Shown here: piece after piece, positions 3,019 through 28,760 of the stretch
Layout of the letters: each line of letters starts with the position of its first letter
Numbering within the stretch: position 1 is the first letter of the stretch
Source of the DNA: Promethearchaeia archaeon
Lineage (GTDB): Archaea > Asgardarchaeota > Lokiarchaeia > Sigyniarchaeales > SOKP01
Length of the DNA stretch: 32,000 bases
Direction of reading: 5' to 3'
NCBI GenBank assembly: GCA_046497275.1
Contig: JAWOFX010000089.1
Location: 1-32,000 of the forward strand
The notes under the pieces: model-generated
Told to the model about the DNA's origin: nothing
What the model saw: only the letters and a program-made list of their open reading frames with translations
Databases searched by the model: none
Made by a program: the position numbers and the translations under genes

Positions 3019-4335
3019 ATGAAACAGAAAATTAAAATAGGAGTTGTATGTTTAGCGAGAAAAACCTTTGATTACAAAGAAGCTGGTAATATTTATAAGA
3101 AAATCCAAGAAGATTTAAAAAAAATCGAAGAAGTCAAATGGAACTTCAAAAATAGGATAATTATTGAAATAGAGGACGCCCAAGTAGCTGCAAATGAATT
3201 AGCTTCGAAACAAATTGATGGTTTGGTGATTATCAGTGGAACCTTTGCTTTAGGGCATTTAGTTTTAGAACTGAATAAACATATTCAAAAACCGATTCTT
3301 TTATGGGGATTATATGAATTACCGTATGATGGAGGTAGAATACGTTTAAATTCAGTTTGCGGCGTAAATTTAAATGCTTCAAATCTTTATAAGTCAGATG
3401 TGAAAAATTTCCATGTAGTAATTGGAAATAAGATAGATGAAGATTGGATAGATGCGATCCGTATTATAAAAGCGATTTCAGAAGCGTATATTGGTGTCCT
3501 CGGCTCTAGAGCACATGGATTCTTTAATCTTGATGTGGATGAATTAGATTTATATAATGAACTAGGAGTTTTAATAGATTATTATCAACTAAGCGATGTG
3601 TTCAACCAAGAAATTGATGATTATAAACGTCCAGAAAGAAAAAGGCAACTTGAAGGGATTTTTGATCTTTCTGATCTTAACAAAAATCAAATCGAAAAAG
3701 TAGTTGAATTGATTCTTAAATTTGAGACTTTTATGGAAAATAACAATTTAACCTCTTTAGCCGTGAGATGTTGGCCTGAATTTGCTGATAAATTTGGAAT
3801 TTCCCCTTGTGCTGCCATGTCTGTATTACAAGCGGATAATAAGATATTAACATGCGAAGGCGATATATTAGGGAGCCTTTCAATGCTCGCGCATGCTGCA
3901 GTCGGCGGAAAAACTCCCTTTTTAGCTGATTTTTCTCAAGTTGACTTCAAAGAAGATTTTGCGCTTTTATGGCATTGTGGAGTCGCTGCATATAATCTTT
4001 GGGATGGTAGATGTGCTAGATCATTAGATTCATACTTTGCTGGTGGAAAGGGTGTTACAGCAGATTTTGTTATGAAATCGGGAGAATTATCACTTTTGAG
4101 ATTTGATTATGCTCTTGGAGAATACCGCATATTCATCCAAAAGGGAAAGGCGATTCCTATGGAGAAAAAATTGAAGGGAACATATGCAAAGGTAAAATTT
4201 TCAGATCATATTAAAGTAGTATTGGATAAAATAATCCAAAATGGTATTGCACATCACATCTCTGTAGTATATGGTAATTTTATAAGACCATTAGAAATAT
4301 TCGCCAAAATAATGGGTTGGAATATAATAAAATAA
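3019..4335 (+). CDS. L-fucose/L-arabinose isomerase family protein
   Basis: SGTFALG, NSVCG, AVRCWPEF, CEGDILG, WHCG and C-terminal AHHISVVYG motifs. ATG at 3019 is preferred over the TTG at 2995. Confidence 0.85.
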   Translation: MKQKIKIGVVCLARKTFDYKEAGNIYKKIQEDLKKIEEVKWNFKNRIIIEIEDAQVAANELASKQIDGLVIISGTFALGHLVLELNKHIQKPILLWGLYELPYDGGRIRLNSVCGVNLNASNLYKSDVKNFHVVIGNKIDEDWIDAIRIIKAISEAYIGVLGSRAHGFFNLDVDELDLYNELGVLIDYYQLSDVFNQEIDDYKRPERKRQLEGIFDLSDLNKNQIEKVVELILKFETFMENNNLTSLAVRCWPEFADKFGISPCAAMSVLQADNKILTCEGDILGSLSMLAHAAVGGKTPFLADFSQVDFKEDFALLWHCGVAAYNLWDGRCARSLDSYFAGGKGVTADFVMKSGELSLLRFDYALGEYRIFIQKGKAIPMEKKLKGTYAKVKFSDHIKVVLDKIIQNGIAHHISVVYGNFIRPLEIFAKIMGWNIIK

Positions 4336-10791: not shown

Positions 10792-11229
10792 TTAATGAGA
10801 TCTAATCGGTCCTAATTCCTTTATTTTATTAGTAAACTCAGTAATTAAATCAGCAAACTTACGACCTTCAGATGCACTTACCCATTCAAGCCTTATACGC
10901 TCCGGATTAATTCCAATTTGCTTGATTATGACATCAAAAAGTCTCTTAAATCTATCTCTCGTATATTCATTACCAGAGATATAATGACAATCCCCAATAT
11001 GACATCCTGTTATTAGAACTCCATCAGCACCATCATTTATAGCTTTGAGAATAAAAGAAGGATCAACTCTCCCCGAACACATTACTCTAATGATTCTTAT
11101 ATTTGGAGGATATTGAAATCTTGAAACTCCAGCTAAATCTGCTCCAGCATAGCTACACCAATTGCAACAAAACACTAATAAAGTGGGTTCAAAATTAGAA
11201 TTCTTTCCTTTTTTTTGAGTTTTTGACAT
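10792..11229 (-). CDS. mvhD: MvhD/FlpD [2Fe-2S] subunit, cysteine form
   Basis: [49 protein letters not shown]. Confidence 0.96.
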
Positions 11230-11233
11230 AATT

Positions 11234-14200
11234 TCACTCCGTATATGGTTTTTCTAATAAATAAGAATCTATCATAACTCCAATTTGTTTAAAATCGTAA
11301 TGCTTAACTGAAATCGCTCCAACTGGACAGGTTGCTGCACATGTTCCACATCCTTTACATAATGCAGAATTAACAGTAGATTTTTTAACCTTTATGCTAA
11401 TATCCTCAAATTCAAGGAGTGTCTCTTTCAATTCAATCGCATTATATGGACATACACTTTCACACTTTCCGCATCCGATACAGTCTTCTGTTTTTACTTC
11501 AGATATTAACCCAGATGTTTTTATTTCTCCTACACTTAAAAATCTACTGGCTCTCCCAGCAGCACCGTGAGCTTGAGATATTGAATCTTGAATATTTTTC
11601 GGCCATTGGGCACAACCACATAAGAATATTCCATCAGTGGCAAAATCTAACGGTCTTAGTTTCACATGAGCTTCTAAGAAGAAACCATTATGATCAAGTG
11701 GTACTTTAAGCATTTTTGCTAATTCATCAACATTATCAGCGGGGATTAGAGGAGTAGAAAGAACTATTAAATCAGAATTCAATGATATCTTTTCTTGTAA
11801 ATTTATATCAAATACATCAACTTGATAACTTTCTTTATCTTTGTTCTTTTTCGTAATTTTTGGAACCTTATCTAAACTATATTTTAGAAAGATGGCGTCC
11901 TTTCTATGAGCTCGATAAAAATCTTCAAATTCTTTTTTAGCCATTTGCATATCTCTATATAAAACTATGATTTCTAATTCTGGTTTTAATTCTTTTAAAA
12001 ATGCGACATTTTTTATAGAACTGCCACAGCATATGTTAGAACAATAAGAAAATCCTTCTTTTTGTCTAGAGTTTACACATAAAATGAATATTGCTCGATC
12101 TATTTTTTTTAGCCATTCAGCGTTTTTTTCCTTCAGTTTCCGCTCTAATTCTTTGAGTGTTATTACATTCTGGTTTTCTTTAGAATATTCGAAAATTCCA
12201 GTTGGTTTAAATTCTTGAGCACCAGTAGCAACAATTATCGTTCCAATTTTTAAGTCTTTAGGTTTCTCTTTTGAAGTAGAAATTGAGACTTCATAATTTC
12301 CAATATACCCTTTAATATTGTCTATTTTTGATTCTAGGTGTATATCAATATAATCATTATTTTTTATTTTTTCAATGTAATCGTTTAAGAAATCATCTGC
12401 TTTCATTTCATTAAGGTAGAGAATATTAAGATCCCGAACTAATCCTCCTAATTGCTTTTCTTTTTCAACTAAATGTACTTTAAAATTTTGATTAGCTAGA
12501 TCTAAAGCGGCAGTCATTCCAGAAATACCTCCACCAATAACCAATGCGATTGGTTCAACTTTCAAATTTTCCTCATCCTGTGGTTGCAAAAGTCTCGACT
12601 TAGAGACAGCCATCCTAATTAAATCCATTGCTTTTTGGGTTGCTGCCTCCTTTTCATTCATATGTACCCATGAACATTGATCTCTTATATTGACCATTTC
12701 AAAAAGATACTTATTTAAACCAGCTTCTAGACATGTCTCTTGAAATAATGATTCATGAGTTCTTGGAGTGCAAGAAGCTACAATAAATCGATTTAAATTA
12801 TTTTCTTTAATTAATTCTTTTATCCTTTCTTGAGAATCGCTTGAGCATGAATAAAGATTATCTTCACAGTGAATAACATTAGGTAATGTGCTAATATATT
12901 CAACTACTTTAGGTACATCTACATATTTTCCAATATTAATACCACAATGACAGATTAATACCCCAATTCTGGGTTGATCTGTAATTTTTACTTCTTTTTC
13001 AGGTGTTTCAATAACTTTTTCTTTTATTTGAGAAAACTTTTCAGAATTGAGGAGCATTGCGATTTGAGAAGCAACCCCACTAGCATTTGCGACTGTTTCA
13101 GGTATGTCCAAGGGTCCTTGACAAAATCCAGACAAAAATATTCCTTTACGAGTAGAAGCTGCTTTATTAAAATAAGAATCTTCTTTGAAGAAGTTATAAT
13201 CATCCAATTCAATATTTAAAATTTTTGCTAAATCCTTGCTACCTTTAGAAGGCACTAAGGGACTAGCCAAAACGACGAGTTCTGCTTCAAATTCTTCTAA
13301 TTTTCCCGTCATTAGATCTTCGTAGTGAATTAATAAATTATTAGTTTTAGGATCTTCAGTAATTTTACTTATTTTTGTTTGATAATACGTGACTCCATAT
13401 TCATCTTCCGCTCTTTGAGTAAATTCATAAAAATCTTTCCCATATGCTCGAAGATCATGCCGAAATACAAAACAATCAGAATTTTCAGAATGTTCCTTTG
13501 TAATTATTGCTTCTTTCGCCGTATACATGCAACACACACTTGAACAATATGGAACTCCTTCTTGAAGGTCTCGTGAACCCGCACATTGAATGAATGCTAT
13601 TTTTTTTGGTTCTTTCTCATCACTTGGTCTCAGCACATGACCACCAAATGGTCCTGATGCACATAAGATTCTTTCATACTCTAATGCGTTAATGACATTA
13701 TCAAATTGATATCCCCATCTTGTGGATAATTCTTCTCCATACATATCAAATCCAGTGGCTAAAACAATCGCACCAACATTTATCTCGAAATGTTCTGGTT
13801 TCTGCTCATAATCAATCGCCTCTGCTTTACAAACTTTACTGCATACTCCACATACATCTTTAGTCAATTTCAAACATAAATTAGGGTCAATAAGATAAAC
13901 TGGTGGAACTGCTTGAGGGAATGGAATATAAATTGACTTTCGCTTTCCTAAATTCATATCGAATGCATTTGGGACTTCAATCTTAGGACATTTTGCAGCA
14001 CAATCACCACATCCCTTACATTTTGTCTCATCGACATATCTTGGTTTCTTTAAAAGAGTTACCGTAAAATTACCCGCTTTTCCTGATACTTTTTCTACTT
14101 CATGATAAGTTAATAATTCTATATTGGGATTCCTAAAAACTTCCACCATTTTAGGTGCTAAAATACACAAAGAACAGTCATTTGTTGGGAAAGTCTTATC

Positions 14201-14332
14201 TAATTGCGCCATACGCCCTCCTATAGAAGGAGACTTCTCAACTAAATATACTTTAAATCCTAATTCTGTTAAATCTAATGATGTTTGAATTCCCGCTATA
14301 CCTCCTCCTATAACTACAACAGCTCCTTCTAT
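11234..14332 (-). CDS. hdrA: Large (~1030 aa) HdrA-like flavoprotein with two FAD-binding regions, cysteine form; start uncertain
   Basis: The frame stays open 40 codons upstream of the track ATG (14212) and encodes [21 protein letters not shown]...[27 protein letters not shown]. Also [31 protein letters not shown], a second GGGISG and C-terminal 2x[4Fe-4S]. The only candidate start is ATA at 14332. Confidence 0.9.
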
Positions 14333-15620: not shown

Positions 15621-16730
15621 TCATAAGGTTTTCATAAATTCTTCTTTACGCTTAATTTTTTTCTGAGAATACTGAGAAAGCAAATTGTATATTCGTTGCT
15701 TTTCTTCTTTAGATAAATCTCTACATTTAATTAACCCAGCATCTATAACTTCTTGAAATAATTTTCTTCCTTTTTTTGTTCTAACTACCACCGTAGTAAA
15801 TTTTTCTGGAGAACCCAGTCCACCAAAAGAGATATCTGCATACATATTAGTAAAATCATTACATGCTTTACATGCAACCCGCATATACTTATTTAAATGG
15901 TTAAATGGTATATGAAATGTTTTTTTAGTTCCCGAACCATCATTCATGTAAAAAATTAAATCTTCTTTAATGTTGATTTTTTCAATATCTTTAAATTTAA
16001 TATTAAAGTCTTTCTCGAATTTATCTATTTCAGATTTATCAAAAAGAAAATTTTCATAACAGAATAATCCTAAGCATACTTCTACATTTTCGGAGGGAGT
16101 GACTCCTAAATCTTGCATACATCGAATTGTATATATCTGACATGGTGTTCCAACAACTGCTAACTTTTTAAATTTATAATGATTCAATTCGGGTATGGTG
16201 TGTGTATAAGTTGAGAATTTTTGTAATTCTTCTAAATGAGGAGAGACATCTAATTGTGTCCCTGAAGAATTTATCAACTCTTCTTTACTATTAGCATAAT
16301 TAGCTTCTCTTAGAAAAGGTTGTTCTGTTTTCGAAACTATTGACCCATTAATTTTATCATTTTTAATTAGAAAATTAATTATAGTATTAACAACCCCTCC
16401 ATCGGTGCCACATTTTAAAAAATCAGCATCATTAGATTGACAAGAATAAAGTTCCTGATAATACCCAATAGGCATGGATTTAAATCCTTCAAATTGGTAT
16501 TCGTTATCTAACTCTTCATCCAAAACATGAGTTTGAGGACAAATATAGTAACAAATTCCACATTCAAGACAATTGTCTTTATTTATATATTGTGGGGGTG
16601 AGTAAGGATCTATAAAATTAATAACGTCATAATCAGCGGCGCTACAAAAACTTACACAGCCTCCACATTCTTGACATATCCCTTTCTCATGAACTTCTTT
16701 AATTAAATCTTCGAAAGTTTTACCACTCAT
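15621..16730 (-). CDS. Coenzyme F420 hydrogenase/dehydrogenase beta subunit family (FrhB/FdhB) with N-terminal ferredoxin domain
   Basis: CQECGGCVSFC, CLECGICYYICP, DGGVVN, VVGTPCQ, GLFCYENF, CKACNDFT..YADISFGGLGS. Confidence 0.9.
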   Translation of the reverse strand: MSGKTFEDLIKEVHEKGICQECGGCVSFCSAADYDVINFIDPYSPPQYINKDNCLECGICYYICPQTHVLDEELDNEYQFEGFKSMPIGYYQELYSCQSNDADFLKCGTDGGVVNTIINFLIKNDKINGSIVSKTEQPFLREANYANSKEELINSSGTQLDVSPHLEELQKFSTYTHTIPELNHYKFKKLAVVGTPCQIYTIRCMQDLGVTPSENVEVCLGLFCYENFLFDKSEIDKFEKDFNIKFKDIEKINIKEDLIFYMNDGSGTKKTFHIPFNHLNKYMRVACKACNDFTNMYADISFGGLGSPEKFTTVVVRTKKGRKLFQEVIDAGLIKCRDLSKEEKQRIYNLLSQYSQKKIKRKEEFMKTL

Positions 16731-16738
16731 TTTTTTAC

Positions 16739-18241
16739 TTAGGTTTCTTTTAATTCAATAGATTTACATTTATTTCTTTTAATACCAGCAATTTTTTCCA
16801 CAAGGAATTGTCCAGGCTTTACTTCAGTTAATTTTTTGGATTCAAGTAAACCCTCTTCTATAGCTGCTTTATAAAGCTCTTCACCTTCCTGCGTTCTTGT
16901 TATTACTGAAGACCATCCTGCTTGTGAACCTATAGACCCGACTGAGATATCTGCATAATCTGAAGTTAGATCTTCACAATAATGACACGTATCTCTGGCA
17001 TAAGATTGAATTTCCTTTAGAGGTACGGTTAATTCTTCACCATTTTTTAAGTTGATGATAAATTTACCTTTATCAATATTCATCTTTACAACTTCATCGA
17101 TTTCTTTCTCAAATTTTTCCTTAACTAATTTGATAATGTTCTCATATGAAAAGGATTCCATACAAAATAAGCCAATTTTATATTTTATATTATTAAAAAA
17201 TGGGTGACCGCTTGGGAAAAAGGAGCCTTTTTCTATTGCCTTCATCATACATGGAACTCCAACGACAGCTATACTGTTAAAATCTTTAGCTTTATCCAAA
17301 ACGGATAATGATGCACAATTCGCATATTTAGTTCCTGCTGTTTTATATAGATCTTCCACATTATCAATAATAACCCCCTTTGGATTCCATAATTCATCAG
17401 AATGTTCAACAGCAACAATTGCATCAACTTTTTTACTATTCAAGAGATATTCCAATAATGAGGTGACCACTCCTCCATCTTGACAGACTTTTTTAATTTC
17501 ATCTGTCGATGTACTTCCACTATAGGTATTAATATAGGCACCTATTTTTTTTGAAAATTGTAAAGACTTATCAACTTTGCTAATACTTTCATAAAAACGA
17601 TCTATAGAAAAAGATCGAGGACATACGGAAAAACATAATCCGCATTTGAAACATTTTTCCTCATCTATCTCTAAATTATCTGAACTGACTGAAATAGCAT
17701 TTACAGGACAGATAGCAGAACACCAACCACAATTACAACAGACTCCATTTTCATAAACAAGAGATACAGGTTCAAAATAATGCTCCAAACTCTCGTTAAT
17801 CATATTCTTAACTTGATATCTGTAAATATATTCTTTTTGTTCAATCTCCTTCTCTTCTCCGTCAACTGTTTTTTTAATTACTTTTGTTTTCACTTCAACA
17901 ACTTCTTCTACATATCCTTGTTCTTTTAAATAAAAAATATCTCTAATTAGATTGATTGGATCTATCTCTTTGAATTTTTTAATAATTTTTTCTATAGTTA
18001 AAGGCTCCTTAAAGCTCTTTAGTTTTTTTAATACTAATTGTCTTTCGGTTTCAGCATCAATAAGAGCATCTAATATGTTATAAAATTCTTCTTCATTATA
18101 TTTTCCTACCTTTATTATATCTTCCTTAGCTTCAAAAAATGCTCTTACTTGAAAATTCTTAGAGGCTAAATAGGTAGCATCTAATAATTCATTTGGAGAA
18201 AATTTCTCAAGTTCTTTACTCTTCATTAACTGTCCCATCAT
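16739..18241 (-). CDS. FrhB/FdhB-family protein with ~150-aa N-terminal helical/winged-helix extension and ferredoxin domain
   Basis: CCNCGWCSAICP, CFKCGLCFSVCP, QDGGVVTSLL, VGVPC, GLFCMESF, CHYCEDLTSDYADISVGSIGS. Confidence 0.9.
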   Translation of the reverse strand: MMGQLMKSKELEKFSPNELLDATYLASKNFQVRAFFEAKEDIIKVGKYNEEEFYNILDALIDAETERQLVLKKLKSFKEPLTIEKIIKKFKEIDPINLIRDIFYLKEQGYVEEVVEVKTKVIKKTVDGEEKEIEQKEYIYRYQVKNMINESLEHYFEPVSLVYENGVCCNCGWCSAICPVNAISVSSDNLEIDEEKCFKCGLCFSVCPRSFSIDRFYESISKVDKSLQFSKKIGAYINTYSGSTSTDEIKKVCQDGGVVTSLLEYLLNSKKVDAIVAVEHSDELWNPKGVIIDNVEDLYKTAGTKYANCASLSVLDKAKDFNSIAVVGVPCMMKAIEKGSFFPSGHPFFNNIKYKIGLFCMESFSYENIIKLVKEKFEKEIDEVVKMNIDKGKFIINLKNGEELTVPLKEIQSYARDTCHYCEDLTSDYADISVGSIGSQAGWSSVITRTQEGEELYKAAIEEGLLESKKLTEVKPGQFLVEKIAGIKRNKCKSIELKET

Positions 18242-18259
18242 TTTTCTTTCTTATATTTT

Positions 18260-18267
18260 TTTAAAAA
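18260..18267 (-). promoter_or_regulatory. Possible internal TATA box (TTTTTAAA) for a leaderless transcript of the downstream FrhB-family gene
   Basis: Ends 18-19 nt before the ATG at 18241. The context is AT-rich, so a chance match is possible. Confidence 0.3.
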
Positions 18268-18279
18268 TTTTTAATCCTC

Positions 18280-18296
18280 CTCCCTTCGCAAGGGAG
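18280..18296 (-). other. GC-rich 7-bp hairpin directly 3' of the SECIS
   Basis: CUCCCUU-GCG-AAGGGAG on the minus strand, a perfect stem in an otherwise AT-rich spacer. Confidence 0.7.
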
Positions 18297-18331
18297 TCAA
18301 CTTATAACTATTATTTTTTTATAAGTCTCAT
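18297..18331 (-). promoter_or_regulatory. Eukaryote-type SECIS element (AUGA/GA core, 9-bp helix II, A-rich apical loop)
   Basis: AUGA-GACUUAUAA-AAAAAUAAUAG-UUAUAAGUU-GA, starting at the first base after the stop of a gene with in-frame UGA codons. Confidence 0.9.
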
Positions 18332-18787
18332 TCAATTGGAGGCTTTTGTTGGTTCTTTTTCTAAAATTTTGTTATTATTCTTATTGATTGGGTTATGTCC
18401 TTCCATTTTAACCTTTTCATATGCATCTTCAACGCTCTTTACGAATTTTTCCGCTTCTGCTGAACTTAACATATACATATTAACACGCATACTTCCAAGA
18501 CCTCTTCGCTCTAAAATTCTATTGGCCAATTCAACATGTCTTTGCGCGTTAAAATTGCCTGATTTAAATTGACACTCATTCGGACGTCATCCTACCACCA
18601 TAACTCCATCACACCCATTTTTAATGGCATAGAGGATATGTTTCACATCGATCCTTCCAGTACATCTAACTTTGACGATTTTAACTGAGGAAGTATATTT
18701 CATGCGAGATACTCCGGCTAAATCTGCGGCAGAATATCCTCATTTAAGACAGGCAAAACAGATTATATAATAATTATCTTCAGTCAT
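18332..18787 (-). CDS. mvhD: MvhD/VhuD selenoprotein, 151 aa, Sec at codons 16 and 67
   Basis: [28 protein letters not shown]...VRCTGRID...DGVMVVG-U-RPNECQF. TGA at 18740-18742 and 18587-18589 align to CNWC and GCH of the Cys paralogue. GGAGG SD precedes ATG 18787. Confidence 0.93.
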
Positions 18788-18789
18788 GT

Positions 18790-20730
18790 TTAACCTCCTG
18801 ATAAAATTCCTTCGATTTCAGCATATATTTGTTTATCTCTAAAATATCTGATATCAATAGCCTGCGTTGGACAGCAAGAAGCGCAAATGCCGCAACCATC
18901 ACAATTTATATCGTCTATTTGTGCGTTTTTACCTTCTTCTACTTTAATTGCTCCTTTTGGACATTCTTTTTCACAGCGATGACATAATATACATCTTTCT
19001 TCGTCAACTTCAGCCACGATTAATTCAAGATCTATTTTCCCAGCAGATGTTAATTCAGCTACTTTGCTTGCTGCTGCTCTTGATTGAGACACAGAATACG
19101 CAATATCTTTTGGTCCTTGCGCAAAACCCGCAATAAAAATCCCCTTGGTTTTCGTTTCTTGGGGCATTAATCCAAAATGCGATTCAGTTAAAAATCCGTT
19201 TTTATCAACGTCCAAATTCATAACCTTAGCAATTGATTCTGTACCTCTAGAAGGTAACGCAGCAGTTGATAAAACCACTAAATCGGCGCTAATATTAATT
19301 ATCTCATCCGTTAAAGAAGAATATACTCTTAATTTTACATCTTTTGTCTCGGGATCTTCTTCCACATCTCCAACTTTTCCTCTAATAAGTCTGATATTGG
19401 AATCTTTCGCACGTTGGTAATATTCCTCAAATCCTTTCTCATTTGTTCGCATATCGATATAACAGATTGTTATATTCGCGTCTGGAAATTCTTCTTTTAA
19501 TAGTTTTGCATTTTTTAATGCCAGCATACAACATACATTACTGCAGTAAGTTCTTTCCGTGCATCGGCTGCCAACACATTGAATGAAGACTATTTCTTCT
19601 GGTTCTTTATCATCTGAAACTCTTCTGACATGACCAGCTAAAGGACCGTTTGGAGCGAGCATGCGCTCTAATTGAGCTTGATTGATTACATTTTCATACT
19701 CACCATATCCATATTCACCAAAAGGCTCATAAATATCCCAACCCGTAGCGATAATTATTGAGCCAACTTTGACTTGGACATCTTCTGGCGTTTGTGAGAA
19801 ATCAATCGCATCTAGCTCGCATTCAGCAACGCAGCTAAAACATTCTACACAAGAATCACGTGCAATATCATAAAGAAATGGAACTGCCTGACCAAAAGCA
19901 ATATCGATAGCTTTTCTCGTCCCCAAATTTTCATCAAAATAATTTGGAATATAAATTGGACACACTTCTGCGCAGGCTCCACATCCATTACAATCCTCTG
20001 TTATGAACCGTGGTTTCTTTTCTATAGTAACTTCATAATTTCCAACGTATCCTTTTACATCTTTAACTTCTGCGTAAGATATTATCTCTATGTTCTCACT
20101 TCGATTTACTTCAAGCATTTTTGGTCCGCAAATTCAGATGGCACAATCATCTGTAGGAAACGTCCGATCTAATTGGGCCATACGCCCGCCTATTGTTGTG
20201 TTTTTCTCAACAAGGTACACTTTAATATCTTGATTCGCTAGATCTAAAGCAGCGTTCATTCCAGCAATTCCACCTCCAATAACTAATGCCGATTTGGTTA
20301 CTGGAACTGTTTTAATCGGAACTGTTTCCAAAAGTCTCGCACGTTCTAATCCACTTTTTACCAAGATTTTCGCCTTTTCCGTTGCCTCTTTGAGATCATC
20401 TGTACACCAACTACAGTGTTCTCTCACATTTACCATTTGGTAATAATAAGGATCTAATCCTGCTTTTGAGAGAGTATCTCTATAAATCGGTTCATGCGTT
20501 ATAGGTGTTCAAGCGGACGCAACAACCCGTGTTAAGTTCTTTTCTTGAATATCATTCATTATTTCATTCTGACCACTTTCAGTGCATAGAAAAGGATGAG
20601 TTTTAGATATAACCACATCATCAAATTTTTTCGCAAAATCTACTAATTCTCCGCAATCAACTTTACTTTTAATATTTATGCCTCATTGACATGCATAGTA
20701 CCCAATCCGTTGCATATTAGATTTTTCCAT
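18790..20730 (-). CDS. hdrA: Heterodisulfide reductase subunit A selenoprotein, 646 aa, Sec at codons 16, 74 and 199
   Basis: Single frame of 647 codons from ATG 20730. TGA at 20683-20685 (YACQ-U-GINI), 20509-20511 (ASA-U-TPITHE) and 20134-20136 (FPTDDCAI-U-ICGPKM). GGGIAG FAD motif, CVGSR..YCSNVCC and four CxxCxxCxxxC motifs. GGTGA SD upstream. Confidence 0.93.
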
Positions 20731-20807
20731 GTTTTTTTTCACATCACCTTTTACTTTAAAAAAATATATCAATTAACTTGTTTTAATTATAGATTACTAC
20801 TAAATTC

Positions 20808-20820
20808 TATAAAAATCTTT
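20808..20820 (-). promoter_or_regulatory. Putative BRE/TATA promoter of the hdr operon
   Basis: AAAGATTTTTATA on the minus strand, about 80 nt upstream of the hdrA ATG. Confidence 0.4.
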
Positions 20821-21068
20821 AATGGTGTATTATATTTTAACTATTTTACTCTTAATTGATATTGTTGTTAAAAACATTATTGGACTTCACATTTAAAATT
20901 CTTTCTCTTTATTCAAATAACTAAAGTTATTATTAAGAGCGACATAATTCGTGAATTTTTTTCTATTACTGAAAATTGGAAAGAAGAATAATTTTTTAAT
21001 CTAAATGATCATAAATAATTATAATTAAAATTCTAAAGAATTAGATCTGAAAATCATCGATATCATAC

Positions 21069-22661
21069 ATGTCAAACAAAAAATTTACCCCTTTAGAAGT
21101 TTATAATAATCGGCAAAAATTGGGTATAACAAATTCAGTTCATATGCTTATTGATATTATAAATGAAGATAACCCAACGCCCGTGAGAGTAGACGCTATT
21201 AAATACTTAGGTTCGATAGAGAATATTCCTAATGATGTAAAAAATGAATGCTTTGAAACTTTAGAGAATATTTTAATATCGGAAAAAAATAATGAACTAA
21301 AATGTCAAGCCGCTAATTGCATGGGCAAAACAAAGTTGGAGAAATCACTTGAACCAATGAAATGGTATTTAGAAAATTGTGAAGTCGATTATAAAACGGA
21401 AAAAACAATATTAAAGGCAATTAGTAATATTAGATTTGAAAAACCAGAAATAGAATTGTTCATTCAATACTTAGATTCCCAATATAACTCAATAAAACAT
21501 CTTGTAAGCGATCAATTATTAAAATTAGTTCCTAATAAAGCGATCAAAATTCTTTTAGAATCATTTGACAATAATATTTCTAATATCTGTAAAAAAGAAA
21601 TTATCAGGTTGGTTGGCTATTATATAGAAAGTTTAAACGTAAGTTTTGCTGATTCTAGTTATCTAAAAGTGAAACATCCTGAAATTATAACCACTCTCTC
21701 CGAAAATATTGATAACTTCATTTCTATCTTATCCTTTGTAGATGAGGAAGACGAGAATTTAATGGAAAAAATAACAACGATTTTCAAACTTTTAGAAGAA
21801 AAAGCTGAAAAAAAATTGATTTCCATCGTAGAAGATGAAGATTTTATCGCAAAAGAAAATGCAATTTACTTAATTGGAAAGCTAAAACTCAGAAGTGCGA
21901 TGCAATTATTATTAGAAAACATCGATAATTTTTATAGTGATATAAGTATTGCCTCAATTAGAGCTCTGGCGAATATAGGAGACATTTCAATCATACCAGA
22001 ATTATTGAATACATTAGACGTCGAAGATATTGAATTTGAATATATAGATATGGATATGAAGTGGTATATCATTGAAACTATAAAAAAGATTTATCTTAAT
22101 GATAAGAGTGTTACATATGATACATTAATAGAAGAATTAGAACAATCGAATGAAATCTTAAAGGAAAGTATCGCATACATTATGGGTGAGATCGGGAAAG
22201 ATGCATTCGTAGATCCTTTGCTCTCATTGCTGGATAAAAAAGAGAATATTGATATTAAAAAAAATGCAGTTATCGCACTAGGAAAAATTGGCAATATTAA
22301 AGCAATTGATCCCTTATTGAATTATATCGAAGATCCAAGAGAATATTGGCTTTTAAAAAAGATAATTATTGATGCGATATTTAATATTTTTAACGAAAAT
22401 TGGTATAAAATCAAAAAAGATGAGGAGACTCGGAGAATCTTATTTATGAAGCGAGCATTTCTGATGGATCATCTAAAAAGCAAAGAAAAAGAATGTTTTA
22501 AGGTGAAACTCGGAATAATTAAATTTTTAGAAAAATTTGGTGATAAAACCGCGATTGATGTTCTTTTTCGGTTCGTGAACGATTTTCATAGAATTGTGAA
22601 GATTTCTGCTCAAAATGCTATTAAAACAATTGGTAAACGATTAGAAGAGGAAAATGATTAA
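21069..22661 (+). CDS. HEAT-repeat (PBS-lyase/HEAT_2-like) alpha-solenoid protein
   Basis: Repeated units AIKYLG, AANCMGK, AIYLIGKL, SIRALANIG, IAYIMGEIG, AVIALGKIGN..AIDPLL. Confidence 0.85.
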   Translation: MSNKKFTPLEVYNNRQKLGITNSVHMLIDIINEDNPTPVRVDAIKYLGSIENIPNDVKNECFETLENILISEKNNELKCQAANCMGKTKLEKSLEPMKWYLENCEVDYKTEKTILKAISNIRFEKPEIELFIQYLDSQYNSIKHLVSDQLLKLVPNKAIKILLESFDNNISNICKKEIIRLVGYYIESLNVSFADSSYLKVKHPEIITTLSENIDNFISILSFVDEEDENLMEKITTIFKLLEEKAEKKLISIVEDEDFIAKENAIYLIGKLKLRSAMQLLLENIDNFYSDISIASIRALANIGDISIIPELLNTLDVEDIEFEYIDMDMKWYIIETIKKIYLNDKSVTYDTLIEELEQSNEILKESIAYIMGEIGKDAFVDPLLSLLDKKENIDIKKNAVIALGKIGNIKAIDPLLNYIEDPREYWLLKKIIIDAIFNIFNENWYKIKKDEETRRILFMKRAFLMDHLKSKEKECFKVKLGIIKFLEKFGDKTAIDVLFRFVNDFHRIVKISAQNAIKTIGKRLEEEND

Positions 22662-27224: not shown

Positions 27225-27554
27225 ATAAAATAAAATATGCGTAAAACTATAAACTTAATGAAGGTATAACTATTTTTTGATATTTTTTATGATATCTTAA
27301 ATCTCTTGAATTCCTCTCTTCAATCAATAATTCAAAAACTATTGAAATTCGATAATAATATCAACATAGTTAATAAAATATGATAAGAAGAAACAATACA
27401 ATATTGAAAAATTAAAAAAAGGGATTTTTATTTTATAATAATTATACCTCTTTAATCCTATAAACCAAAAATAAATATTATTAAAATTCCATACATTTTT
27501 TTATATAGTTATATCATAAACTTCATAAAATTTTATAAACTTCATTCCATAATT

Positions 27555-28760
27555 ATGAAATTAAAATTAATCCCGCTTAAAAAATCGGTTATTGTGGGAG
27601 ATAAATTGCCCATACAAGCGATTTTCAACTTTGAGGAACAAACAGATTTATTTTGGAGCGGGATTCGTTTACTTACATCCCCGCCTTGTAGTAAAAATCT
27701 GCAAATTACTAAAAAAGAGATTTTCTCTAAAGGTCTTTTTGAACCCGGAGAGTATATTAGGGAAAAAGCAATCACGATTAAAAATAATGTAGTTCCAACG
27801 ATAGAGAAGCGAAATTTGGACTACAGAATTGAATTATTATTAAGAACACCAAATCCAGTTAATCCAGATGAAGATATTATTATTAAAAAAAATGAAGACA
27901 TTAAAATTAAGCCTAAAAAAACAGACACTAAGAAAAAACCTAGTCCTCTCTCATTCTCAATTTCTGGATTGAATGTTAATTTAAGGAAAGATGTATTTAA
28001 ACCAGGAGAAACTATAAAAATAAATTATACTTCAGAAGGATTAAGAGAAATTGAATTTAGACTCCTTCAAGAAGCAAATTTAATTTGTCATTGTGAACAA
28101 TACGGAAAAAATTGTCAACAAGTTGAAAATTTACCTCCAGCGATTGCGGGGGATGTGAAGACAAAATCAAATACAGAACAAGGATATCTTCTGTTGAAAG
28201 TGCCCGAGGTTGCGGAACCAAGTCACAACTATTTATGGGAGCCTTCTGAAAAAGAGCACTGGGGTGTAAAATATGGAGATTATTCTAAATGGTCCTTATT
28301 AGTAATCGGAAGAAAAATGTCAGGAAAAGAACCTATAAAATTTGATTTACCGATAACTATCAGTTCTGAAATTGTAGAAGAGGAAGAAGCTGAAGCTGAT
28401 TTATTTTCAGGAAGTCCATCTGAAGCTCCCTCTGTTTTTGAGAGTATGTCATCTAAATTGAAAAAAGATTTTCAAATAGATTCAATTGATTTAGTAAGTG
28501 CAGAAGATCATGAGATAAAAAAGTATAAAGTATTAATTAAAAATAATTCAAATGAAGATCTTGAAGGCGCCACTGTAAAATTAACCGGACTTCAAGAAGG
28601 ATTGTTTGAAACGGCCCCCTATTTATTTGGATATAATAAATGGAAAAGTGGCAAAGAAAATGAGATCATGTATGAAACAAAGCAAGAAATCACGGCACTT
28701 GTCGCAAATATAGAAGATAATTCTCAAAAGAAAATTAGACTTCAAAAACCTATTAATTAA
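27555..28760 (+). CDS. Arrestin/Vps26/Spo0M-like beta-sandwich protein with a third C-terminal domain
   Basis: Two beta-rich halves with arrestin-like motifs (PGEY...VPT...Y; LRKDVFKPGETIKI...L.Q...L.VP...PS...W.L.V...LPITI), then an acidic linker and an extra domain. Confidence 0.55.
   Translation: MKLKLIPLKKSVIVGDKLPIQAIFNFEEQTDLFWSGIRLLTSPPCSKNLQITKKEIFSKGLFEPGEYIREKAITIKNNVVPTIEKRNLDYRIELLLRTPNPVNPDEDIIIKKNEDIKIKPKKTDTKKKPSPLSFSISGLNVNLRKDVFKPGETIKINYTSEGLREIEFRLLQEANLICHCEQYGKNCQQVENLPPAIAGDVKTKSNTEQGYLLLKVPEVAEPSHNYLWEPSEKEHWGVKYGDYSKWSLLVIGRKMSGKEPIKFDLPITISSEIVEEEEAEADLFSGSPSEAPSVFESMSSKLKKDFQIDSIDLVSAEDHEIKKYKVLIKNNSNEDLEGATVKLTGLQEGLFETAPYLFGYNKWKSGKENEIMYETKQEITALVANIEDNSQKKIRLQKPIN

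Follow-up and report, generated by a model that had tools for sequence, protein, structure and literature searches.

We analyzed a 32,000-nt stretch of a Promethearchaeia archaeon genome (assembly GCA_046497275.1, contig JAWOFX010000089.1, positions 1 to 32,000; hereafter the window) and identified in it two adjacent candidate selenoprotein genes, hdrA and vhuD (also called mvhD), that share one predicted selenocysteine insertion sequence (SECIS). A single eukaryote-like, kink-turn-type SECIS placed directly behind vhuD very probably serves all five in-frame UGA codons of the pair, those of the upstream hdrA cistron included. All coordinates below are those of the window; hdrA, vhuD, the SECIS and the FrhB-like gene that follows are encoded on its minus strand. 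The features that carry the argument are the following.

18790..20730, minus strand: hdrA, encoding a heterodisulfide reductase subunit A-like flavoprotein of 646 amino acids with 3 predicted selenocysteine (Sec) residues; ATG at 20730, TAA at 18792-18790
20683..20685, minus strand: Sec-UGA 1 of hdrA, residue 16 (GYYACQU), 2354 nt upstream of the SECIS AUGA
20509..20511, minus strand: Sec-UGA 2 of hdrA, residue 74 (ASAUTP), 2180 nt to the SECIS
20134..20136, minus strand: Sec-UGA 3 of hdrA, residue 199 (DDCAIU), 1805 nt to the SECIS
18793..18798, minus strand: GGAGGU, Shine-Dalgarno sequence of vhuD, within the final hdrA codons
18332..18787, minus strand: vhuD/mvhD (FlpD family), 151 amino acids with 2 predicted Sec residues; ATG at 18787-18785, stop UGA at 18334-18332
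18742-18740 (residue 16) and 18589-18587 (residue 67), minus strand: Sec-UGAs of vhuD, the latter, 258 nt from the AUGA, being the nearest Sec-UGA
18297..18331, minus strand: lokiSECIS core with AUGA, 9-bp stem, 11-nt A-rich loop AAAAAUAAUAG and GA, from RNAfold, a pattern scan and the covariance model R1

The core consists of the AUGA (18331-18328), a stem formed by 18327-18319 with 18307-18299, the loop AAAAAUAAUAG (18318-18308) and the GA (18298-18297), and all 9 bp between the stem strands GACUUAUAA and UUAUAAGUU were matched without a mismatch. The AUGA follows directly after the stop UGA of vhuD, with 3 nt from first base to first base. Judged by its motifs, its stem and loop, its position and its profile score, the 18297-18331 sequence would be classed as a lokiSECIS, or Asgard type I eSECIS-like element. 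The covariance model R1 was built from 47 related elements that were in register, the window's own copy among them. We found that the AUGA and GA (or AA) columns were invariant or near-invariant in this set and that seven of the nine stem pairs had compensatory changes. Pairing was seen in 94% of the stem cells as compared to 40-57% when the partners were slid; since the 47 elements had been chosen by their pairing pattern, it is the covariation that is informative and not the percentage paired.

With filters off, R1 identified a sole site in the 32-kb window, at 18293-18335 on the minus strand, with 58.1 bits and an E-value of 5e-10, a score that arises partly by construction because the window's own copy was in the training set. 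The orthologues of this site scored 46-68 bits. An initial annotation of this DNA had assigned five UGA codons in two cistrons to one SECIS and had reported no second SECIS-like motif upstream of hdrA. Its counts and coordinates were correct by the sequence and by R1, and R1, the synonymous sites and the short leader (see below) agreed on the absence of a second element. As it had described, the TAA of hdrA (18792-18790) is followed 2 nt on by the ATG of vhuD (18787-18785), and the first UGA, 45 nt into the hdrA open reading frame (ORF), lies about 2.35 kb (2354 nt) before the element with a stop codon and the whole vhuD ORF in between. The covariance scan over the hdrA region that it had proposed as a check, run with filters off, gave nothing above 11.5 bits in 18336-21070, and nothing above 9 bits was found by R1 upstream of hdrA in 20731-21068. 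The runner-up R1 match in the window, at 27505-27549 on the minus strand (16.2 bits, E-value 0.18), was intergenic and stood before a plus-strand gene at 27555; it was rejected as a chance match because no minus-strand ORF with a UGA lies upstream of it. Scanning the whole genome with a loose pattern gave noisy results (60 matches as compared to 17-29 in shuffled sequences), and the covariance model was used instead.

By its profile matches the hdrA product is an HdrA homologue. It matched NF040770 (HdrA2) with 768 bits over model positions 1-640 of 777, and NF041891 and NF041778 with 612 and 598 bits, respectively, all of these NCBIfam scores falling short of the strict curated thresholds (1100-1400); the Fer4 and FAD/NAD-binding domains of Pfam were also present. 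The vhuD product scored 141.7 bits with PF02662, above the cut-off of 22.3, and 157.6 bits with the VhuD model NF045873, below the cut-off of 215. Together, the two proteins are collinear with fused HdrA2 proteins, in which vhuD corresponds to model positions 646-770. The closest relatives were of the Asgard/Lokiarchaeia type, with HdrA orthologues 75-81% identical in Promethearchaeota metagenome-assembled genomes (MAGs). When we aligned the genes with the paralogues of the same genome and with 80 related loci, all five TGAs fell on Cys columns. At Sec-UGA 1, Cys or TGA was found in four paralogues of the same genome and in most of the 80 loci, while the column of Sec-UGA 3, the 'canonical position' of the HdrA Sec (PMC4989117), had TGA in all 80, Methanococcales included. 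A sixth TGA, at 18334-18332 and abutting the AUGA, is likely the stop codon of vhuD. The two genes lie in different frames with a gap of 2 nt (AC) between the hdrA stop and the vhuD ATG, and synonymous-codon conservation was raised (z ~3.5) in the last ~14 hdrA codons (18793-18835) around the GGAGGU. Both the GGAGGU and this conservation across the 2-nt gap are consistent with translational coupling of hdrA and vhuD.

The related set comprised 80 hdrA loci, and the R1 search covered 83 loci (704 kb, both strands). The AUGA-stem-loop-GA pattern was present behind nearly all of the 80. R1 gave 59 matches at E<1e-3 with at most one per locus, and all 59 were on the strand of the genes, located at the stop of vhuD or, in loci with no vhuD following, at that of hdrA. 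We also compared how the genes end, and found TGA as the gene end in 1 of 68 loci for hdrA versus 25 of 68 for vhuD (Fisher p 6e-8). Such avoidance is what one would predict if a terminal UGA in hdrA were decoded as Sec while one in direct contact with the element escaped recoding. The only locus of the 68 with TGA first behind hdrA was L073 (a Freyarchaeota MAG), at 3448-3472, where hdrA and vhuD apparently overlap by ~48 nt; it is possibly an exception to the rule that hdrA never ends in UGA, or a case of Sec read-through.

The distance between the two genes gave a similar contrast. Where hdrA had no close vhuD, it had its own SECIS within ~25 nt of the hdrA stop (12 of 12 loci). Eight loci, from Methanococcales, Jordarchaeum, Helarchaeota and others, have 105-253 nt between the two genes and contain a structured hairpin there; AUGA..GA was detected by the pattern scan in five. 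In 60 loci the genes are at most 54 nt apart, with no element between them and no room for one. Using 22 orthologues, we found no rise of synonymous conservation in the 25 codons after each of the five UGAs; codon conservation behind the UGAs was 0.37-0.60 against a mean of 0.49-0.51 (standard deviation 0.07), which argues against in-ORF hairpins of the bacterial type. Constraint was confined to the start of hdrA, to its final ~14 codons, where the ribosome-binding site of vhuD lies, and to the final ~12 codons of vhuD, which form a strand of the lower helix of the SECIS described below.

Transcription of the locus was assessed with RNA-library contigs, for which two further features are needed.

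16739..18241, minus strand: FrhB/FdhB-like gene, 500 amino acids, without TGA, starting 56 nt behind the SECIS
20739..20770, minus strand: putative promoter and 5' end, with TATA-like AUAUAUUUUUUUAAA at ~20769-20755 and adapter-bearing RNA contig ends at 20739, 20740 and 20754

In eight metatranscriptome runs of salt-lake samples from two studies, 84-90% of the sampled words were present, and four of the runs, from two studies, were mapped as contigs onto the window. Single contigs that were 100% identical to the window extended over 17932-20740, 17870-20739, 18123-20728 and 18556-20784. Each of them crossed from hdrA into vhuD, and all but one extended further, through the SECIS into the FrhB-like gene; in run X1 the SECIS was covered by a second contig, 17930-18585. 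The divergent neighbour gene beyond 20926 was almost devoid of contigs, making plain DNA carry-over less likely. Adapter sequence followed the contigs at 20739, 20740 and 20754 in runs X2 and X3 of one study, ~26 nt past the TATA-like AUAUAUUUUUUUAAA; contigs are unable to prove RNA ends, and these give a weak hint of an hdrA leader of ~10 nt, which would be too short for a 5' SECIS. Contig depth supports neither a ranking of the genes nor a drop behind the SECIS, and uncovered stretches were not interpreted. With the bridging contigs taken as supporting evidence and not as proof, hdrA and vhuD are probably transcribed as one mRNA. Against separate hdrA and mvhD transcripts, which the initial annotation had named as an outcome that would refute its reading, stand the RNA contigs that bridged both genes and the SECIS. 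Four independent lines, namely stop-codon use, the gap contrast, the synonymous sites and the transcripts, indicate that hdrA depends on the downstream element.

The genome of this archaeon (3.85 Mb, 30% G+C), in which the window is contig C109, has four Sec-type hdrA-vhuD pairs, on C109, C124, C24 and C171. Every TGA in them is on a Cys column, and all four carry AUGA-stem-loop-GA directly behind vhuD; the element of the C124 paralogue was missed by R1 with default filters and found by the pattern scan. The genome also has several Cys-type hdrA-vhuD pairs without TGA, one of them in the window at 10810-14323, and R1 matched in Sec-gene contexts only and beside none of the Cys-type pairs. A tRNA-Sec was detected with RF01852 (49.4 bits, gathering score 47), SepSecS with PF05889 (381 bits), and a SelB-like factor, which adjoins the tRNA-Sec, at 234 bits, under the bacterial cut-off of 242. 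With these candidates for tRNA-Sec, SepSecS and a SelB-like elongation factor, the genome appears equipped for Sec decoding. Aragorn found no tRNA-Sec, and few tRNAs overall, in the same genome in which the Rfam model did detect it. The one tRNA-Sec match occurs at the ends of two contigs (C33:11-129 and C165:63-181), the C33 copy near SepSecS (C33:2270-3427) and the C165 copy near the SelB-like gene (C165:3461-4498), and C33 and C165 probably join as a single cluster of Sec machinery. On C118, at ~75955-76500 on the minus strand, an ORF containing two consecutive in-frame TGAs (…SGCUUEKV…) is followed by a SECIS-like element that scored 27 bits with R1; this ORF may encode a selenoprotein with tandem Sec codons.

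The Cys-type module in the window (10810-14323, minus strand) is made up of hdrA-like pieces at 14323-13034 and 12982-11258 and an mvhD at 11181-10810. It comes after two FrhB-like genes and an HdrD-like (CCG-domain) gene, and the Sec and Cys versions of the HdrA/MvhD module are thus adjacent in one cluster. Contigs of several runs departed from the window sequence at 13930 and 11338, their unmatched ends (90-255 nt) being identical from run to run, and one contig had 33 other letters in place of 16366-17098. These divergent contigs in the Cys-type part may be strain variants or chimeras of paralogues.

We propose that the folded SECIS, probably bound by a protein for which the L7Ae/L30 family and the C-terminal domain of EFSec are candidates, would recruit a Sec-specific elongation factor and Sec-tRNA(Sec) to ribosomes on the same mRNA, so that each of the five UGAs located 258 to 2354 nt upstream would be decoded as selenocysteine. 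The TAA of hdrA and the coupled restart at vhuD would be no obstacle because the signal would work via the mRNA and not via the path of the ribosome, while the UGA that abuts the AUGA would be too near the element and would terminate vhuD. The first UGA is transcribed long before the SECIS, so productive decoding would have to occur on completed transcripts and not on polymerase-coupled ribosomes. Of this scheme, we infer the insertion of Sec, the 2.35-kb reach of the element in cis and the factor that binds it. The initial annotation had described a eukaryote-like, long-range 3'-untranslated-region (UTR) mechanism recoding an upstream cistron across a translation stop and restart. Its long-range shared action is supported by the comparative data and the transcripts, and the occurrence of one element per locus, the UGA avoidance, the gap contrast and the bridging contigs all favor recoding across the stop and restart. 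The placement in a 3' UTR did not hold in full, since the FrhB-like gene starts 56 nt behind the SECIS, which is therefore intergenic and not in a terminal 3' UTR.

Several points weigh against the proposal that one lokiSECIS serves both cistrons. Rfam searches at the gathering score and at E<=10 returned no SECIS family and only three chance matches; the apparent likeness to eukaryotic SECIS elements is one of motifs and not of Rfam models. R1 gave no match in 24 of the 83 loci, some of which were truncated and some of which had divergent SECIS types, and it detects the loki type only, such that a second element of another architecture would be missed. Assembled contigs are no proof of one continuous transcript or of its termini, and DNA may be present in RNA libraries. 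The literature holds no experimental demonstration of lokiSECIS function, and the minimal Loki vhuU SECIS gave 21 mU/mg in a Methanococcus maripaludis reporter versus 22 for the control without SECIS (PMC11881835). This inactivity may reflect a host lacking the right factor. An SBP2 homologue is not known in Asgard archaea (PMC4989117, PMC11227280).

It is conceivable that an element of another architecture serves the hdrA UGAs and the lokiSECIS serves vhuD only, candidates being bacterial-type hairpins immediately after the individual UGAs, a GAA_A element of the Methanococcus type, or an element in the 5' leader like that of methanogen fdhA. The restriction of R1 to the loki type leaves room for such an element, methanogens have one SECIS in a 5' UTR (PMC11881835), and the long-gap lineages do give hdrA an element of its own. 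However, we consider this unlikely for the present locus, where the 22 orthologues showed no synonymous constraint in the 25 codons behind each hdrA UGA, the 2-nt gap offers no intergenic room, and the RNA contig ends suggest a leader of ~10 nt with no score above 9 bits in 20731-21068. Mariotti et al. likewise found no further RNAz match in hdrA +/- 200 nt (PMC4989117), and the avoidance of UGA at the hdrA stop fits a signal with distant reach.

That the hdrA UGAs need no cis element on the same mRNA, the SECIS acting in trans or decoding being driven by context or independent of a SECIS, seems very improbable to us. SECIS-independent routes in prokaryotes are discussed in a 2026 review (PMC13188914), but hdrA without a close vhuD keeps its own SECIS within ~25 nt (12 loci), the Cys-type paralogues are without one, and ordinary UGA stops are used, for example, by this vhuD and by 25 of 68 vhuD homologues. 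Alternatively, the UGAs could be true stops in an hdrA that is decaying or fragmented, its role being covered by the Cys-type HdrA paralogues in the cluster. ORF calling with table 11 does yield pieces of 100 and 442 amino acids, and the window contains Cys-type copies of hdrA/mvhD at a distance of 4-8 kb. We give this explanation hardly any credence, since many MAGs keep the full frame (75-81% identity), free of other stops and with its TGAs at fixed Cys columns, RNA contigs extend over the whole gene, and the Sec machinery is present.

RNAfold predicted that the lokiSECIS core is part of a larger structure.

18276..18342, minus strand: extended element, with a lower helix of CCUCC (18342-18338) and GGAGG (18280-18276) around the core and a side hairpin

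In the lower helix, the last vhuD codons pair with a strand ~20 nt behind the GA, and the side hairpin, UCCCUU-GCG-AAGGGA (18295-18281), lies between the GA and the 3' strand of that helix. In 23 in-register sequences of another paralogue group, the three helices were 94% paired with compensatory changes in each, and in the orthologue group the helices had different sequences (e.g. CUCCC/GGGAG and ACCCC/GGGGU). Both flanking helices were predicted for 83% of 58 real elements as compared to 12% of flank-shuffled ones. A comparable side hairpin (CCUUGCGAAGG and the like) was found behind the SECIS candidates of most other selenoprotein candidate genes of the same genome, and three-helix flanks were also present behind vhuD in the related loci L004-L081. 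A mixed 52-sequence alignment (MAFFT and RNAalifold) recovered the main stem only because the flanks of the two paralogue groups are out of register; the flanking helices were therefore tested on one in-register group and by per-sequence folding. The main texts of PMC4989117 and PMC11227280 mention the lower stem and not the side hairpin, which is possibly additional to the published description. Tentatively, and with some doubt, we suggest that the functional Asgard SECIS might be this three-helix element, with a lower helix from selenoprotein-gene codons and a GC-rich 3' hairpin with a GCR-containing loop, and that factor binding or the long reach might require the flanks. In that case every ribosome completing vhuD would unfold the element, and the arrangement could help explain the failure of the minimal Loki SECIS in a heterologous reporter.

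The system type found here is already known, and our finding is a correct rediscovery. A single lokiSECIS common to the HdrA-VhuD pair was described in Lokiarchaeum in exactly this layout, with HdrA always ending in UAA or UAG and with UGA stops at the element explained by a minimal-distance rule (Mariotti et al. 2016, PMC4989117), and the same arrangement was later reported for hundreds of genomes of Asgard archaea (Huang et al. 2024, PMC11227280). The published pairs share with ours the gene order, the minimal gap, the multi-Sec HdrA including the canonical site, the two-Sec VhuD, the TAA or TAG stop of hdrA, the AUGA/9-bp stem/11-nt A-rich loop/GA element behind vhuD, and a vhuD UGA that touches the element. 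Nothing essential differs, the present case coming from another MAG (salt-lake samples); what is added here are the bridging RNA-library contigs, the stop-codon statistics, the synonymous-site test, and the lower helix with the 3' side hairpin.

Eukaryotic type I SECIS elements, such as that of selenoprotein P, have in common with this one the AUGA..GA kink-turn-type core, a helix of ~9-12 bp, unpaired apical A's, a kilobase reach to several UGAs and a minimal-distance rule for near UGAs. In contrast to them, the present element acts, as proposed, in a polycistronic mRNA with a stop and restart between target and element, has no known SBP2 and no Rfam match, abuts coding sequence, and is followed by a gene 56 nt on. 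The SECIS of Methanococcales and Methanopyrus (GAA_A, kink-turn-like) occurs with hdrA and vhuD in the same order and with one element for the two vhuD UGAs, and AUGA..GA is also found at the vhuD and hdrA elements there (PMC4989117). However, hdrA in these methanogens encodes a one-Sec HdrA and has its own element in a gap of 134-226 nt (L067, L069 and L083), whereas here the gap is 2 nt and there is no hdrA element. Bacterial SECIS elements, in-ORF hairpins 3' of the UGA that are bound by SelB, likewise direct UGA to Sec in polycistronic prokaryotic mRNAs, but with one element per UGA within ~11 nt; no conserved structure was found after any UGA of the present pair.

Asgard archaea can now be cultured, and this locus is well suited for testing, as it combines a 2-nt gap, Sec and Cys modules in one cluster, abundance in metatranscriptomes and a defined extended structure. 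One element that would recode five stop codons in two cistrons, over up to 2.35 kb, would surpass every other Sec signal proposed for a prokaryote in both range and number of targets. In a case that has so far been purely computational, the shared SECIS is a key argument for an Asgard origin of the eukaryotic SECIS system.

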